From a virus (taxonomy: Duplodnaviria > Heunggongvirae > Uroviricota > Caudoviricetes): a stretch of DNA of 4,992 nucleotides. Position numbers and translations under genes: made by a program. The stretch lies in the IMG/VR virus record IMGVR_UViG_2703718815_000007; one strand, given 5' to 3'. The notes beneath the pieces are model-generated. The model worked only from the letters and a program-made list of their open reading frames with translations. It was not told the origin of the DNA and searched no databases. This document shows, piece after piece, positions 164 to 4,992 of this stretch; the first letter of the stretch is position 1; the number at the start of each line of letters is the position of its first letter.

Positions 164-1414
164 GTGATGACCGGATTCAAAATTATGAGCAGAGCACTTA
201 ACAAACTGAGCGATACACAGCTAAGAAAAATCAACGGCACACCAGCCCCAAAAACCACATTTCTTAATGACGGTGGAAACCTGAGCGTCAGGCATTCCAC
301 CAGCGGCCTGTTAACCTGGTATTTCACCTACAGGGCAGGAGCTGGACGCCAGGTATCACCGGAACGCCTGAAGCTGGGAAATTATCCTGATCTGAGCCTG
401 AAAGCAGCCAGGGAAAAAGCGGCACAGTGTCGCGCATGGCTGGCAGAAGGAAAAAATCCACGCCATGAGCTTAATTACTCCATACAGGAAGCACTAAAGC
501 CGGTAACGGTGGGCGATGCGATCAGCTACTGGCTGGAAATGCACGTAAAGGAAAACCGTGTCGATTACGTATGCCTGAAAAGCCGCCTTAATAATCACGT
601 CATACAGCATATTGGCAATATGCCACTGGATAAATGCGAGTTACGTCACTGGCTGGCCTGTTTTGACCGGATACGCAAAAAATCCCCCGTAACATCTGGC
701 CACATGATGCAGGCGTGTAAACAGGCGCTTAAGTTCTGCCGTAAACGTCGCTACGCAGTCAGTAACGTTCTGGATGATCTCAACGTGGTGGACGTTGGCA
801 AAAAGCCGGGCATAAGCGAACGCGTGCTAAGTAACAAAGAACTGGGCGAATTATTACAGGCACTGGATAAAAAAATATTCCCGCCCTACTACAGCGCGCT
901 AATCCGCCTCCTGATTGTGTTCGGCTGCCGAACCGGAGAACTGAGATTGTCGGAGATCAGGGAGTGGGATTTTAAGGAAATGCTCTGGACAGTACCGAAG
1001 GAGCACAGCAAAACGAAGGTCGCCATATTCAGGCCAATACCGGAAAGTATTTTACCGTTCGTCACACAGCTGGTGGAGCAGAACCGACACACAGGGCTAT
1101 TACTCGGGGAACTGAAACAGGAAGCCAGCGTGTCGCAATACGGCAGATTCACACACAAAAAATTAAACCATCCTCACTGGTCACTACACGATATACGGCG
1201 CACGTTTACCACGATGCTGAACGATTTAGGCGTGGATCCACATATTGTCGAGCAACTTACCGCCCACCAGATGCCAGGGATGCAGCGAGTCTATAACCAC
1301 TCCCGTTATCTCGATGCGAAACGTAATGCGCTGGACATGTGGACAGAGCGGTTAGAGATACTGGCGGGTACTCACGAAAACGTAACCACACTGCCAATAG
1401 CCAGAGAAATATAA
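164..1414 (+). CDS. int: tyrosine site-specific integrase, P4-type (N-terminal arm-binding domain plus catalytic domain)
   Basis: 416-aa ORF. N-terminus LSDTQLRK...DGGNLSV...GNYPDLSLKAAREKA matches the P4-family arm-binding pattern (LTDxxIRK...DGGGLYL...G.YP.VSLAEAR). Catalytic motifs present: GCRTGELRLSEI (TGxRxxE box), HDIRRT (HxxR), RVYNHSRYLDAKRNALDMW (YN..Y nucleophile region). No strong SD before any start; in-frame ATGs at 164, 167 and 185. ATG 185 (MSRALNKLSDTQ) gives the more typical spacing before the LSD motif, so the true start may be 185. Confidence 0.92.
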   Translation: MMTGFKIMSRALNKLSDTQLRKINGTPAPKTTFLNDGGNLSVRHSTSGLLTWYFTYRAGAGRQVSPERLKLGNYPDLSLKAAREKAAQCRAWLAEGKNPRHELNYSIQEALKPVTVGDAISYWLEMHVKENRVDYVCLKSRLNNHVIQHIGNMPLDKCELRHWLACFDRIRKKSPVTSGHMMQACKQALKFCRKRRYAVSNVLDDLNVVDVGKKPGISERVLSNKELGELLQALDKKIFPPYYSALIRLLIVFGCRTGELRLSEIREWDFKEMLWTVPKEHSKTKVAIFRPIPESILPFVTQLVEQNRHTGLLLGELKQEASVSQYGRFTHKKLNHPHWSLHDIRRTFTTMLNDLGVDPHIVEQLTAHQMPGMQRVYNHSRYLDAKRNALDMWTERLEILAGTHENVTTLPIAREI

Positions 1415-1790: not shown

Positions 1791-1979
1791 GTGTTAAGCA
1801 CAGATCGCTTTATACGTGAAAAAGAATGTCAGCAACTTACAGGCCTGAGCCGTTCATGTCGGTACCGCCTGGAAAAAACCGGACAATTCCCATCACGGCG
1901 TAAGCTCGGCGGTCGTTCCGTTGGCTGGTCTTTATCCGAAGTTCTGGCATGGAAGGAAAGCTGCGAGGCAGTTCACTAA
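1791..1979 (+). CDS. alpA: AlpA/Vis-family small HTH regulator (prophage transcriptional regulator / excisionase-like)
   Basis: 62-aa ORF with GTG start and strong SD. Sequence ...CQQLTGLSRSCRYRLEKTGQFPSRRKLGGRSVGWSLSEVLAWKES fits the AlpA-family pattern (HTH followed by ...G.RSVGW...EV..W). Placement immediately after a P4-type int is typical. Family call is by recollection, not search. Confidence 0.8.
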   Translation: MLSTDRFIREKECQQLTGLSRSCRYRLEKTGQFPSRRKLGGRSVGWSLSEVLAWKESCEAVH

Positions 1980-2031: not shown

Positions 2032-3312
2032 ATGAATACTGGATATTCTCCCGAACAAGGGCGGGGCTTCGTTCGTCCTGAAAAACAGAATCTGCAAAAT
2101 TTTGCCGAAATTATTCCGGTTATTTCCGGCCTTACTGGCGGGAGTGAAACCAATATTGTTAACGCCAGAGCGTTGCAGATGTTTGATGATAAAAAGGGAG
2201 TAAATTTAACTTACACCCCTGACGGCAATCAGAATATGAGCATTATCTCTGAGTCAGGTTTCTACAAACTAATAAAAACAAAAAGCGCCCCGTTGCCGGA
2301 GCGCCTTTGTGAACAATTAACCTACTGCGCAAAAAATGAATCTGAGCAGTGGGATTATATCAACCGTGTGGTGAAGCGCCACTATTGCCGGATAACAGGC
2401 AAAACAAAGGCGACCGCAAAAGGGTCGCCAGTGGGAACAAGGGAAAACAAAAGCATCACCAACAATGCCACATTTGCGGCTGGTGGGCAATGTGATCAGT
2501 CAGATTTGGTTCGTTCCAAGGTTTGCAACGAGAGTTTTTTCCTGCGCTCTTTAAGGAATTTCTCAAGAGCAAACGAACAAGGTGCGAATCTTTCTGATTC
2601 ATGCTCTATCTTTCTGCGCCGTCTTTTCCGTGTCGGTGATAATGTTTTGGTCAATTCTTTATCGGTCATTGTGTTGTCCTGCATAGCAATGCGCCGTAAT
2701 ACCTTACACCACGGCGCTGGTGATGGTTATTCCTGCTCTTTGGCCTTGCGACGCTGGCGGTATTCAACTTCTCGCTTTAATGCTGCTGTTACAAACTGCC
2801 CTGTACTTTCACCAGGCATTTTTACCGCCTCAACATTGTTCATAACTTCATGCGGAACCCTTGCCGCAACTGTTTGTGATTTTGCGTTTACTGCTTTTGT
2901 TGCCATGTTGTGTACCCCTTACAAAAAACAAATGCAGTATGCAGGAAAAAAAATAAGTGTTCAACACTTGACGTGTTTAACACCAGGGCTTAAATTGGTG
3001 TTCAACACCTTACTGATGCAAGGTGCAGAAACGACGAAACCCGGCAGTGCGCTAACACTAACCGGGCTTCTAACCACCAACGATAGAAAGCGTATCGAGG
3101 TAGCTATGAGAAATTATACCAGACACCCGCAAGGGCGGGACTCGTACAACCTGAATAAATACATCTGGCGTTTTATCGCCCTGAGCACGGCACAACCGCG
3201 CGTGATTACCATTGAGGCCACCAGCGAACAGGAAGCGCGTCAGCAATCTCCTGATGGCTGCGTGATGGTATTCGCTGCCCGTATTCGTCAGGGGGTACGC
3301 CATGTGCAATAA
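2032..3312 (+). CDS. uncertain 426-codon open frame, probably not a single gene; the first ~130 codons look protein-like, the middle looks like antisense read-through, the last 68 codons are the separate Icd/Kil-like ORF
   Basis: Seen: no stop in this frame from 2032 to 3312. Codons ~135-290 are Cys/Ser/Leu/Arg/Phe-rich, and this frame is wobble-aligned antisense to two minus-strand ORFs with their own RBS, promoter and terminators. The segment MSIISESGFYKLIKTKSAP resembles the Bro-N/antirepressor ISE.GLY.LI..S motif, but that is a weak by-eye resemblance. Two minus-oriented terminator hairpins lie inside it. Confidence 0.25.
   Translation: MNTGYSPEQGRGFVRPEKQNLQNFAEIIPVISGLTGGSETNIVNARALQMFDDKKGVNLTYTPDGNQNMSIISESGFYKLIKTKSAPLPERLCEQLTYCAKNESEQWDYINRVVKRHYCRITGKTKATAKGSPVGTRENKSITNNATFAAGGQCDQSDLVRSKVCNESFFLRSLRNFSRANEQGANLSDSCSIFLRRLFRVGDNVLVNSLSVIVLSCIAMRRNTLHHGAGDGYSCSLALRRWRYSTSRFNAAVTNCPVLSPGIFTASTLFITSCGTLAATVCDFAFTAFVAMLCTPYKKQMQYAGKKISVQHLTCLTPGLKLVFNTLLMQGAETTKPGSALTLTGLLTTNDRKRIEVAMRNYTRHPQGRDSYNLNKYIWRFIALSTAQPRVITIEATSEQEARQQSPDGCVMVFAARIRQGVRHVQ
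2271..2304 (-). terminator. candidate intrinsic terminator for leftward transcription (distal of two)
   Basis: GC-rich imperfect stem 2285-2292 with 2297-2304 (7 of 8 pairs), loop TTGC. On the minus strand it is followed by TTTTTGTTTTTATT (complement of 2271-2284). On the plus strand it is followed only by CTTTGTG. Confidence 0.4.
2401..2429 (-). terminator. candidate intrinsic terminator for the leftward RHH cassette (proximal)
   Basis: Perfect 7-bp stem GGCGACC (2409-2415) with GGTCGCC (2423-2429), 7-nt loop. On the minus strand it is followed by TTTGTTTT (complement of 2401-2408). It lies 66 nt beyond the stop of the 62-aa minus ORF. Confidence 0.55.
2496..2684 (-). CDS. small highly basic protein of unknown function, second gene of the leftward cassette
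   Basis: 62-aa ORF MQDNTMTDKELTKTLSPTRKRRRRKIEHESERFAPCSFALEKFLKERRKKLSLQTLERTKSD. The internal ATG at 2669 has AGGA 7 nt upstream, so the product is probably 57 aa. Protein-like K/E/R-rich composition, same strand as and just downstream of the RHH gene, followed by a terminator. No family recognised. Confidence 0.4.
   Translation of the reverse strand: MQDNTMTDKELTKTLSPTRKRRRRKIEHESERFAPCSFALEKFLKERRKKLSLQTLERTKSD
2727..2906 (-). CDS. Arc/MetJ-like ribbon-helix-helix DNA-binding protein, candidate repressor of the switch region
   Basis: 59-aa ORF, hand-translated (below the track's length cutoff): MATKAVNAKSQTVAARVPHEVMNNVEAVKMPGESTGQFVTAALKREVEYRQRRKAKEQE. Fits RHH layout: beta-strand (VAARVPHEV), helix A, G-x-S/T turn (PGESTG), helix B (QFVTAALKREVE), basic tail. 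SD AAGGGG 8 nt upstream of the ATG. Fold assignment is by eye. Confidence 0.6.
   Translation of the reverse strand: MATKAVNAKSQTVAARVPHEVMNNVEAVKMPGESTGQFVTAALKREVEYRQRRKAKEQE
2936..2964 (-). promoter_or_regulatory. candidate sigma70 promoter for the leftward RHH cassette
   Basis: On the minus strand: TTGAAC (complement of 2959-2964, inside operator site 1), 17-bp spacer, CATACT (complement of 2936-2941). This gives a leader of about 23 nt carrying the AAGGGG SD. Confidence 0.35.
2955..3009. promoter_or_regulatory. operator array: three palindromes sharing the core GTGTT-N-AACAC
   Basis: Site 1 at 2955-2969 AAGTGTT-C-AACACTT (7-bp arms); site 2 at 2973-2983 GTGTT-T-AACAC; site 3 at 2997-3009 GGTGTT-C-AACACC (6-bp arms). 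The sites overlap both candidate promoters. Confidence 0.65.
2968..2996 (+). promoter_or_regulatory. candidate sigma70 promoter for the rightward icd-like/replication operon
   Basis: TTGACG (2968-2973), 17-bp spacer, TAAATT (2991-2996). Operator site 2 sits in the spacer and site 3 at the predicted start. The 5' UTR would be about 100 nt to ATG 3106. Confidence 0.4.
3106..3312 (+). CDS. small protein, first gene of the rightward operon; possibly Icd/Kil-like (positional analogue of P4 kil)
   Basis: 68 aa: MRNYTRHPQGRDSYNLNKYIWRFIALSTAQPRVITIEATSEQEARQQSPDGCVMVFAARIRQGVRHVQ. SD GAGG 5 nt upstream. The in-frame ATG at 3016 has no SD and lies about 13 nt from the predicted start, so it is disfavoured. 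The Icd-like label is from memory of annotations in P4-like prophages and is low-certainty. Confidence 0.5.
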   Translation: MRNYTRHPQGRDSYNLNKYIWRFIALSTAQPRVITIEATSEQEARQQSPDGCVMVFAARIRQGVRHVQ

Positions 3313-3769
3313 CACCCGTCCGGACGCAGCCGCCGAAGCCATCAAAACGCTGATGCACGCGCTGATTGATATTTCTGTTATCGCAGACAAGGCGCATAAG
3401 CACGCCACCAGCGAAACAGAATATGCCGGGGCTTTCGTTCCTCACTCACTGGCTGTTATGCAATTTAGTGCTGATATGGCACTGAATGAGGCCAGGGCTA
3501 TCCTGATTGCTGATTGTGAAAATGGGGGGGGGGTTATGCGTGATGATCGTTTTAATGCCCTGAAACAGGAATTTTATGGCGCACCGGATGATACAGGCGA
3601 TGCGTTGCTGGTTGTTAATGACCTGATAAAGGCCGCATGTTTTTTAATTGGAACCGCTGAACATTCAGGAACCGGCAACGATATTCTTATTATTGCGTCG
3701 GATTATGCTGAATATGTGGCAGAGGCGCGTTACAGAAGAAAATTCCCGGAGAATGTAAGCCATGTGTGA
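3302..3769 (+). CDS. hypothetical protein (155 aa), translationally coupled to the upstream ORF; contains an in-frame G10 tract
   Basis: ATG 3302 overlaps the upstream stop (3310-3312). Strong SD AGGGGG at 3290-3295, 6 nt upstream. Protein-like composition. No family recognised. Confidence 0.65.
   Translation: MCNNTRPDAAAEAIKTLMHALIDISVIADKAHKHATSETEYAGAFVPHSLAVMQFSADMALNEARAILIADCENGGGVMRDDRFNALKQEFYGAPDDTGDALLVVNDLIKAACFLIGTAEHSGTGNDILIIASDYAEYVAEARYRRKFPENVSHV
3524..3533 (+). repeat. homopolymeric G10 tract inside the 155-aa ORF (encodes GGG)
   Basis: Ten consecutive G read directly. G9 or G11 would give a stop within about 10 codons. Confidence 0.9.
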
Positions 3770-3995
3770 TATTTACAATGACACAGTAGACCGTGCATAC
3801 CGTGCTCTTGCTTACAGTGAAAACATGCTTGAAATATTGTGCTTATGGCTTGAAACGCTTGGCGATAATGAAAGAGATAAACGCAACAGCAATATTGCGA
3901 CGGCGTTAATAACGCTTCTTGAGCCGGTAATAATGGAACTACAAGAAATAGACCTTTTGCACGACAGATATAAAGAACAACACACCGGGAAATAA
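3762..3995 (+). CDS. hypothetical protein (77 aa)
   Basis: ATG 3762 overlaps the upstream stop (3767-3769). GGAGA is 9 nt upstream. Acidic, helix-prone sequence. No family recognised. Confidence 0.55.
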   Translation: MCDIYNDTVDRAYRALAYSENMLEILCLWLETLGDNERDKRNSNIATALITLLEPVIMELQEIDLLHDRYKEQHTGK

Positions 3996-4000
3996 AAACC

Positions 4001-4300
4001 ATGAAACAGAAAATTTCTGGCTTTACTGCCAGCGGCCCCGCTCGGCCTGAAATCCGCCCCGGCGATATTTTCCGGGATAACTACGGCGGCACGGTAACGA
4101 TTAAAAGCGTGGCGGGACGGTGCGTTACTTACCGCCGTGATGGGTACGGCTATGACTGTGTGATGCCTGTTTATCAGTTCCGGCGTGATTTTTCACTGAT
4201 ACAGGCCACACCACGCAAACAGCCCACCAGCAACGCAAAGGCACGGGCAAATATTCAGAAAATGAAAAGCATGATTAACGCATTCAGGGGCAAAAAATGA
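4001..4300 (+). CDS. hypothetical protein (99 aa) with a basic C-terminal tail
   Basis: Starts 5 nt after the upstream stop; its stop overlaps the next start (ATGA at 4297-4300). Core GDIFRDNYGGTVTIKSVAGRCVTYRRDGYGYDCVMPVYQF looks like a small beta-rich domain, followed by a K/R-rich tail. No family recognised. Confidence 0.6.
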   Translation: MKQKISGFTASGPARPEIRPGDIFRDNYGGTVTIKSVAGRCVTYRRDGYGYDCVMPVYQFRRDFSLIQATPRKQPTSNAKARANIQKMKSMINAFRGKK

Positions 4301-4992
4301 AACTGGCACCGAACTTAAAAAAACAGCCACACGACAAAATGACCGAAGTCATTATTTTTGCGGGTAGTGATGCCTGGGCGCACGCGAAACAGTGGCAGGA
4401 ACAGGACGGGCGACTTGCTGGCGACAACGTGCCACCTGTATGGCTTGGAGACAGCCAGCTTGACGAACTGGCAGACCTGAAAATTATCGACGATGGTCGC
4501 TATTGTGTCCGGCTATACAAGGCAGGCCACATCAAGCCGTCAAATATTAATGCCATCGGGCAAAAACTGGCGGCGGCAGGTGTACGGGATGCGAATTATT
4601 ACCCTGAGGGAATGCACAGCCAGAAGCTGGAGAACTGGCACGACTACCTGCAACGGATCCGCGAACAGGCAGAGCGCGGGGAAATACTTACTGACGAGCA
4701 ATACAGCCAGCGAAAAACCACGCTACCAATGAGTATTGGATCTACAGGGTACGACACACAGCTTGATTATGTCGTTAAGGGCGTTATTCCGGCTAATTCA
4801 TTGTGCAGCACATACGGCGCGAGCGGTTCTTATAAATCGTTCCTCGCGTGTTCCTGGGCGTGTCATGTTGCCACGGGGCGCCACTGGGGAGGCCGCAGGG
4901 TTGCGCATGGTTCGGTGATGTATGTTGTCGGTGAAGGTGGCATTGGTGTCCCCCGCCGTATCAGGGCATGGGAAATCGTTAATGATGAACGG
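4297..4992 (+). CDS. replication protein, 5' partial (runs off window): possible Toprim-like N-terminal region fused to a RepA/AAA_25-like P-loop NTPase
   Basis: Hand-translated 232 codons with no stop to the window end. SD AGGGG 6 nt upstream. C-terminal part YVVKGVIPANSLCSTYGASGSYKSFLACSWACHVATGRHWGGRRVAHGSVMYVVGEGG matches the RepA/AAA_25 pattern (...G..GSGKSFLAL..A.AVATGR.W.GR.V..G.VLY...E). The N-terminal region has E...DDG spacing that may be Toprim-like; that part is tentative. Confidence 0.8.
   Translation, partial: MKLAPNLKKQPHDKMTEVIIFAGSDAWAHAKQWQEQDGRLAGDNVPPVWLGDSQLDELADLKIIDDGRYCVRLYKAGHIKPSNINAIGQKLAAAGVRDANYYPEGMHSQKLENWHDYLQRIREQAERGEILTDEQYSQRKTTLPMSIGSTGYDTQLDYVVKGVIPANSLCSTYGASGSYKSFLACSWACHVATGRHWGGRRVAHGSVMYVVGEGGIGVPRRIRAWEIVNDER

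Follow-up and report, generated by a model that had tools for sequence, protein, structure and literature searches.

The immI region of phage P22 is built around two ribbon-helix-helix (RHH) repressors, Mnt and Arc, together with the antisense RNA sar and the ant gene (PMC2629481). In P4, immunity is RNA-based and involves a C4-family CI RNA whose seqA/isrK targets lie after the promoter P_LE, the promoter at the head of the corresponding operon is constitutive, and translation of the nested eta/kil genes from an upstream alpA-linked promoter overrides immunity (PMC10111431). For the phage-inducible chromosomal islands (PICIs) of Gram-negative bacteria, a succession of Integration, Bro, Replication and Late zones has been described, with C4/isrK immunity RNAs in some islands and no RHH repressor (PMC10111431). 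AlpA is their activator, and the global repressor has been called unclear (PMC6092414). Here we analyze the control region of one such island, contained in a 4,992-nt stretch of DNA from the IMG/VR virus record IMGVR_UViG_2703718815_000007 (hereafter the window). Its 2907-3105 gap separates a leftward gene for a 59-aa protein of the YlcI/YnfO family (YlcI) from a rightward operon headed by an Icd-like, P4-Kil-like gene. In our reading, to which we assign a probability of about 0.78, YlcI would be an RHH repressor that acts on GTG-N5-CAC sites in the gap, represses the rightward operon and its own gene, and is combined with a lock formed by an antisense RNA similar to SymR of E. coli.

A preliminary description of the window, made from its letters alone, had placed three palindromes with a common half-site over two divergent promoters in this gap, and proposed that an RHH protein acts there as the switch of the replication operon. 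The three palindromes were readily located again (Table 1). The exact pattern GTGTTNAACAC matches three times in the 4,992 bp, always within the gap, and a repeat search puts the three sites, spaced by 16 and 25 bp, into a single family. When one mismatch is allowed there are four matches against 0.29 expected, a number reached by none of 200 shuffled sequences. The fourth match, GTGTTAAGCAC, lies at the alpA start codon (1791-1801, one mismatch) and was dismissed as an operator because relatives of other classes lack a matching extra copy; its resemblance to the operator appears to be a coincidence of coding sequence.

The comparison drew on 112 related loci, taken from both reference genomes and IMG/VR. 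They comprise 58 distinct gap versions, from Enterobacterales, on which layout and promoter counts are based, and 64 distinct modules with 13 operator cores, on which covariation is based. The layout of the gap is constant across genera: a site over the -10 of the leftward promoter P_L (fused to CAGTAT), an A/T-rich stretch, a TTGAC(G) -35 of the rightward promoter P_R, an abutting site, a -10 and a further site. The 11-bp site itself, GTG-N5-CAC, varies from element to element, and within an element the same version occurs two to four times. In most classes the core is asymmetric and the copies are usually in direct orientation, sometimes with one of them inverted. The alignment across relatives proposed in the preliminary description hence upholds a fixed layout and a site that covaries with the protein (see below), but the palindromic form holds for the specificity class of the window and is not general.

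Almost all relatives carry a site with element-specific sequence at the O2 position, and the O3 position, 22-26 bp from O_R1, is kept as widely. O1 is confined among relatives to the QT[VI]AA specificity class, named after YlcI residues 11-15. Most relatives have a further site, O_L (GTGnnnnnCAG fused to the TAT of the -10), over the -10 and the start of P_L. At the equivalent place QTIAA relatives read GTGTTCAACAG and the window reads AACAAATGCAG; the putative operator O_L is decayed in the window, and the QT[VI]AA lineages carry instead the extra palindrome over the P_L -35. The scan for promoters recovered P_R as it had been described (9/12 consensus matches), as the sole sigma-70-like site reported in 2650-3350. 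Its -35 is kept in all 58 distinct gaps and the form of its -10 (A at position 2, T at position 6, spacing 16-18 bp) in 57 of them. The proposed leftward promoter is present and its -10, [CT]ATACT, is kept in 44 of 58 relatives, but with 8/12 consensus matches it falls under the scan threshold. At the place of the hairpin that follows P_R, relatives have a hairpin of different sequence.

The sequence of the site follows the sequence of YlcI, in particular its predicted beta-strand (Table 2); operator classes beyond the ten listed also exist. Adjusted mutual information with the operator core is highest for YlcI residues 12 and 14 taken together (0.91), and decreases through the strand 11-15 (0.81), the inward-facing residues 11, 13 and 15 (0.68), helix A (0.60), the N-terminus (0.55) and the C-terminus (0.35) to the downstream gene (0.26). 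Single-step changes can be followed along the series KKLEA with core GCTGA, KKIDV with TCTGA and KR[IF]D[AV] with TCCGA. The outermost triplets GTG and CAC are invariant, in parallel with the invariant YlcI residues N7, K9, S10 and R16.

Table 2. Residues 11-15 of YlcI and the operator sequence found with them
YlcI residues 11-15	Operator
QT[VLI]AA	GTGTT[CT]AACAC
[KR]KLEA	GTGGCTGACAC
KKIDV	GTGTCTGACAC
KR[IF]D[AV]	GTGTCCGACAC
QSVTA	GTGTAAGACAC
QSLKS / QALKA	GTGG[AG]CCACAC
QKIHA	GTGGAACAC
QKLQ[AT]	GTGGAGTCCAC
QKMSA	CTGGGTGCCAG
QMTTV	GTGTATTTCAC

As adjacency alone gives some covariation, the argument rests on this ranking of protein segments and on recombinant modules, which break the linkage. 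KKLEA proteins have the same operator in Xenorhabdus and in E. coli-type elements, although their helix A differs. Three QT[VLI]AA lineages, with otherwise diverged proteins, keep the same strand and operator, and proteins that share the C-terminal half of the window's YlcI but have another strand are found with other operators. The same Icd-like gene stands behind several operator classes, and AlpA alleles are not linked to operator class. Most probably, then, to judge from these comparisons, YlcI reads the GTG-N5-CAC sites through its beta-strand. One relative (L059, 1501-2420) has a tandem of two ylcI genes, separated by 740 bp and with strands QTVAA and QMTTV, each preceded by matching operators; either the control module has been duplicated or two islands join at this point.

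YlcI matches the NCBIfam family YlcI_YnfO_N (NF041551) with 59.7 bits, against a cut-off of 30, and the RefSeq annotation of E. coli homologues is likewise YlcI/YnfO. An AlphaFold2 (AF2) monomer model built from 37 homologues (confidence, pLDDT, 81) has helices at 19-28 and 35-58 and the strand-helix-helix fold of about 45 residues. Residues 11-17 alternate between polar and hydrophobic, and G32-E33-S34, invariant in the 37 homologues, corresponds to the RHH G-x-S/T turn at the start of helix B. Residues Q9, N11 and R13 of Arc are its base-contacting residues. In an hhalign alignment of low probability (4.9%, weak), YlcI K9-P31 falls on Arc K6-E28 and YlcI residues 12, 14 and 16 on those three; S10 and R16 are invariant and stand beside the variable, predicted DNA-facing residues 12 and 14. 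In structure, YlcI is matched best by RHH domains of antitoxins (TacA, Rv0298, CopA, HicB and VapB12). A Pfam search of the window protein gave no RHH match at E <= 1 and a profile search of PDB sequences with YlcI gave nothing relevant, while a remote family member (P0152) reaches the Pfam RHH_1 cut-off exactly (20.5 bits) and others give weak HicB or PSK_trans_fac matches. The model, the register with Arc, the invariant G32-x-S34 and the remote family member thus support the assignment of YlcI as an RHH protein, as had been suggested from its layout. Our literature search on YlcI/YnfO found no functional data.

The preliminary description had regarded control in this gap as protein-based, which is not the whole picture, as the same interval holds a predicted SymR-like antisense RNA. 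The sole Rfam match in the window is symR (RF01809), on the minus strand at 3105-3033, with 32.8 bits and thus below the gathering score of 61. The match recurs in five relatives with 28-40 bits, under the same threshold, always antisense to the rightward leader. In 52 aligned leaders the minus strand folds with -29.3 kcal/mol and the plus strand with -3.3 kcal/mol; if read as plus strand, the 193 G-U cells of the minus-strand structure would turn into A-C mismatches. RNAalifold, applied to 30 diverse sequences, predicts 23 pairs, and compensatory changes occur in 15 of these. A covariance model (R1) built from the island RNAs only finds the annotated SymR of E. coli K-12 over its full length (35.9 bits, E = 8e-7) and finds nothing in P4. 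Homology of the predicted island RNA to SymR is supported, despite the sub-threshold score, because of this reciprocal match. The predicted RNA, whose structure is kept across genera, represents a large and apparently undescribed extension of the SymR family. An extended -10, TGGTATAAT, lies seven bases ahead of its 5′ end; in relatives inspected by eye, the 5′ helix is preceded, at a distance of a few bases, by a TAnnnT hexamer, and after the 3′ hairpin comes a U-rich tail.

Table 1. Features of the 4,992-nt window
Feature	Position	Strand	Sequence and remarks
Putative operator O1	2955-2969		AAGTGTTCAACACTT; perfect 7+1+7 palindrome; over P_L -35, abuts P_R -35
Putative operator O2 (O_R1)	2973-2983		GTGTTTAACAC; fills P_R spacer; first G common with -35
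Putative operator O3 (O_R2)	2997-3009		GGTGTTCAACACC; directly after P_R -10, covers predicted start
Decayed remnant of putative ancestral operator O_L	2927-2937		AACAAATGCAG; 3/11 positions kept
Rightward promoter P_R	2968-2996	+	TTGACG-17-TAAATT; predicted start ~3003
Leftward promoter P_L	2936-2964	-	-35 TTGAAC (2959-2964), 17-bp spacer, -10 CATACT (2936-2941); predicted start ~2929
Hairpin	3006-3025	+	CACCTT-N8-AAGGTG, from repeat search; predicted 5′ end of P_R transcript
Predicted SymR-like cis-antisense RNA	3033-3109	-	Covers Shine-Dalgarno (3097-3100) and ATG (3106) of Icd-like gene
Extended -10 of antisense RNA	3113-3121	-	TGGTATAAT; inside first codons of Icd-like gene
ylcI/ynfO-family gene, 59 aa	2727-2906	-	Proposed RHH repressor
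Icd-like, P4-Kil-like gene, 68 aa	3106-3312	+	First gene of rightward operon; NCBIfam NF033153; phrog_6196, phrog_1743
Remaining rightward operon	3302-4992	+	155-aa open reading frame (ORF), 77-aa ORF, DUF4222 gene (4001-4300), RepA-type AAA_25 helicase (from 4297, cut by window end)
Stop-free frame, 426 codons	2032-3312	+	Bro-N-like start; antisense through 62-aa ORF and ylcI, across operators and leader, into Icd-like gene
62-aa ORF, very basic	2496-2684	-	phrog_21027, E = 2e-13; downstream of ylcI
Tyrosine integrase gene	185-1414		
AlpA gene	1791-1979		
Bro-N-like segment	from 2032	+	

We propose that the N-terminal strand of a YlcI dimer would read the 11-bp GTG-N5-CAC sites, here GTGTT[C/T]AACAC, with residues 12 and 14 facing the DNA. 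Since O2 and O3 lie on the core of P_R, one in the spacer by the -35 and the other at the edge of the -10 and over the start, occupation of the pair should turn off the Icd/Kil-like and replication operon. Occupation of O1, over the -35 of P_L, would give negative autoregulation of YlcI, and the SymR-like RNA, with its promoter within the first Icd-like codons, would add a translational lock on the Icd-like gene. Binding, the direction of regulation and the state (quiescent or induced) in which YlcI is expressed are what we infer here, and so is the role of immunity or maintenance switch that the preliminary description gave to the region. The core of that interpretation is well supported by the comparison of relatives, but corrections are needed as to the type of element, the additional RNA and the form that the site takes in general.

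Several points weigh against our reading. Induction of EcCICFT073 has been explained by AlpA, with no need for a repressor (PMC6092414). YlcI and its sites are physically adjacent, which would lead one to expect some covariation by linkage. Two loci (L027 and L029) are a partial exception to the code, having the same residues 11-15 and two to three different core bases; their N-terminal arms differ as well. Finally, P_L is a weak match to the consensus.

An alternative that we consider unlikely is that YlcI binds the sites but is a Cro-like or a transient regulator, produced once induction has occurred, or an activator of its own promoter, with quiescence mainly due to the antisense RNA and to lack of AlpA. 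The presence of the RNA lock fits it, as do the constitutive, RNA-reliant equivalent promoter of P4 (PMC10111431) and the induction of EcCICFT073 upon overexpression of AlpA alone (PMC6092414). Nevertheless, ylcI is the only regulator directed against an otherwise unidirectional gene set, as is usual for a maintenance repressor; the positions of the sites, in the P_R spacer and at the start, are of the repressor type, and the many orthogonal specificity classes resemble those of immunity regions.

It is also improbable, in our opinion, that YlcI binds the sites as part of a self-contained autoregulated cassette, made of an RHH antitoxin and a small partner such as the 62-aa ORF, which would not regulate the replication operon. 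That the best structural matches of YlcI are antitoxin domains could be taken in this sense, and a small ORF does follow ylcI in E. coli-type elements, possibly as the second gene of the leftward unit. However, other genera lack that ORF, which only E. coli-type elements keep, irrespective of operator class; the C-terminus of YlcI is a basic tail without a toxin-binding extension, and two sites out of three occupy the core of the opposite promoter, P_R, and not the promoter of YlcI itself. Very improbable is a third alternative, that another factor (AlpA, the Icd-like protein, a replication or a host protein) reads the sites and YlcI merely travels along, for although AlpA is a known regulator of these islands and the Icd-like protein bears the PHROG label "transcriptional repressor", that label is probably inherited (see below) from a P4 gene in a system with RNA-based immunity (PMC10111431), operator class is best followed by YlcI residues 12 and 14 while one and the same Icd-like gene occurs with several classes and AlpA alleles are shuffled against them, and the sites occupy fixed promoter positions and not a replication origin.

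The label comes with phrog_6196 and phrog_1743. The latter is common to the Icd-like protein and to residues 73-137 of the P4 "cI ORF", in the eta/kil region; as the P4 record annotates this ORF as "transcriptional repressor" and it falls in phrog_1743, the PHROG label probably stems from the old annotation of a P4 "cI gene product". The same family qualifies the contrast with P4 that had been suggested previously: the immunity RNAs of P4 are indeed absent, since C4, isrK and c4-a1b1 gave no match in the window at E <= 1 (74.9, 60.8 and 44.1 bits in P4 as control), but the first rightward gene shares a family with the eta/kil region. A further likeness is the long rightward frame that starts in the Bro-N-like segment. 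In 54 of the 58 distinct modules the whole of ylcI is overlain in antisense by one open frame; the other two frames have about five stops each in the gap alone. The frame labels in these gap stop counts are affected by wrong downstream starts in several Xenorhabdus loci ("MLWLTY..." products), which leave the operator analysis unaffected. Because the long frame mirrors the nesting of P4 eta/kil, we suggest, as a speculation, that AlpA-driven transcription and translation of it may bypass repression of P_R and interfere with expression of ylcI, as eta would in P4.

The framing of the element as P4-like had to be abandoned. By gene content and order it is a Gram-negative PICI and not a P4-like satellite, an assignment we make because its gene order agrees with the zones published for these islands and because the prototype EcCICFT073 has the same module. 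Islands of this type carry their int, alpA, replication and late/packaging genes in a single direction over about 10-15 kb and occupy a dedicated attachment site. The window contains int, alpA, the Bro-N-like segment, DUF4222 and the RepA-type helicase, and the leftward 59-aa gene and the RepA-like gene reported earlier are both in place. The genes of the rightward operon are tightly packed, with neighbors that overlap or almost abut. The window ends before the right half of this particular element; its close E. coli relatives L114 and L001 continue with SSB, capsid and terS genes, and PerC too is among the genes that follow in related E. coli loci. Neither the window nor islands L001, L114 and L116 have the capsid-size genes sid, delta and psu or the alpha primase-helicase; the three islands have capsid/terS or full head modules in their place. 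In EcCICFT073 the module consists of YlcI/YnfO (C_RS30120; strand QALKA), a 199-bp gap with GTGGGCCACAC sites, an Icd-like gene (C_RS30125), DUF4222 and a primase. These small genes have late-added locus tags in the current annotation of CFT073, which may be a reason why they were overlooked.

A 1-kb region of the window has a match in 1,684 of 5,426 complete E. coli genomes, at as many as 7 places in one genome, and a YlcI protein identical to that of the window occurs in Edwardsiella hoshinae. A search of a phage collection, with DNA and protein, yielded almost nothing similar, just one 16.5-kb "induced prophage". The close E. coli relative L001 (NZ_CP122620.1, 8117-23923) lies inside the terminase large-subunit gene of a prophage and has a full head module; on this evidence it is an island of the capsid-forming, helper-embedded type, an arrangement described previously (PMC10111431). 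Just after int (1442-1495) the window has six ACAAC-type units spaced by 10 bp, with inverted copies upstream of int (34-130), and a perfect 14-nt inverted pair (106-119 / 1442-1455) flanks the gene; the units are probably arm-type integrase sites or AlpA binding sites. In a Xenorhabdus relative (L023, 5519-5587) the Rfam int-alpA RNA motif (RF02996) scores above threshold; in the window it has no match at E <= 1. Within the 155-aa ORF there is a run of ten G (3525-3534) where L001 has two separate genes, and the run also marks the split between separate N- and C-terminal half families in PHROGs. It could be a site of slippage or phase variation, or a tract prone to sequencing error.

A wider proposal, which we regard as possible but doubtful, is that the master repressors missing so far from Gram-negative PICIs, EcCICFT073 included, are the YlcI/YnfO proteins. 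These would fall into over a dozen orthogonal "immunity" classes, for which two residues of the beta-strand are largely decisive, would be combined with a SymR-like RNA, and would be overridden by an AlpA-driven, eta-like ORF that runs antisense through the repressor gene. If this is true, several islands could coexist in one genome without cross-repression. A literature search on PICIs and ribbon-helix-helix proteins, which did not extend to paywalled work, retrieved no paper linking these islands to an RHH repressor, and among papers that mention EcCICFT073 together with "repressor" none identifies one for the island. A paper on an EcCIMP1 "repressor" was set aside as a precedent, as it concerns a PerC-like protein and not the ylcI module. 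Gram-negative PICIs are widespread, and the putative repressor had not previously been recognized in this family of elements. Our proposal would give a function to the uncharacterized YlcI/YnfO family and provide a natural set of orthogonal repressor-operator pairs whose simple two-residue code can be tested by mutation. It would also enlarge the SymR family well past the symER locus, and link the control regions of PICIs and P4 via a common eta/kil-like layout.

When compared with known systems, the locus resembles the immunity region of P4 in its gene order (an alpA/vis homologue, a long ORF of the Bro network, an internal promoter, a short C-terminal Kil-like product, replication genes) and in the long stop-free frame. 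P4, in contrast, has neither a YlcI gene nor GTG-N5-CAC sites, carries its C4/isrK RNAs on the sense strand inside the "cI ORF", whereas the structured RNA of the island is predicted on the opposite strand, and has the alpha primase in place of a RepA-type helicase. With SymR/SymE of E. coli the predicted RNA shares its arrangement and a two-domain secondary structure; it differs in its target, an Icd/Kil-like gene instead of SymE with its AbrB fold, and no LexA control is evident at the island locus. We know of no homology between Stl, the repressor of Gram-positive PICIs, and the YlcI RHH protein, and of no phage-encoded inducer for the YlcI-type island. The Stl/Rpr repressors of Gram-positive PICIs (Staphylococcus aureus pathogenicity islands, SaPIs) are similar in that the excision/replication operon of a phage satellite is under a divergent repressor encoded by the integrase side; they differ in that the island protein has about 59 aa and that the established trigger in Gram-negative islands is activation by AlpA (PMC6092414).

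The switch is closest in its logic to P22 immI, as a functional analogy only. Both would have a small RHH repressor divergent from the operon that it controls, with operators over core promoters. The target of sar lies in the controlled operon, and the short antisense RNA predicted for the island would likewise regulate a gene of the controlled operon. YlcI and Arc have no significant sequence similarity, the RNA of the island is SymR-like, and the island has three 11-bp sites compared with one operator of 17-21 bp. The two also differ in what is controlled: an antirepressor (ant) in P22, and Icd/Kil-like and replication genes in the island.

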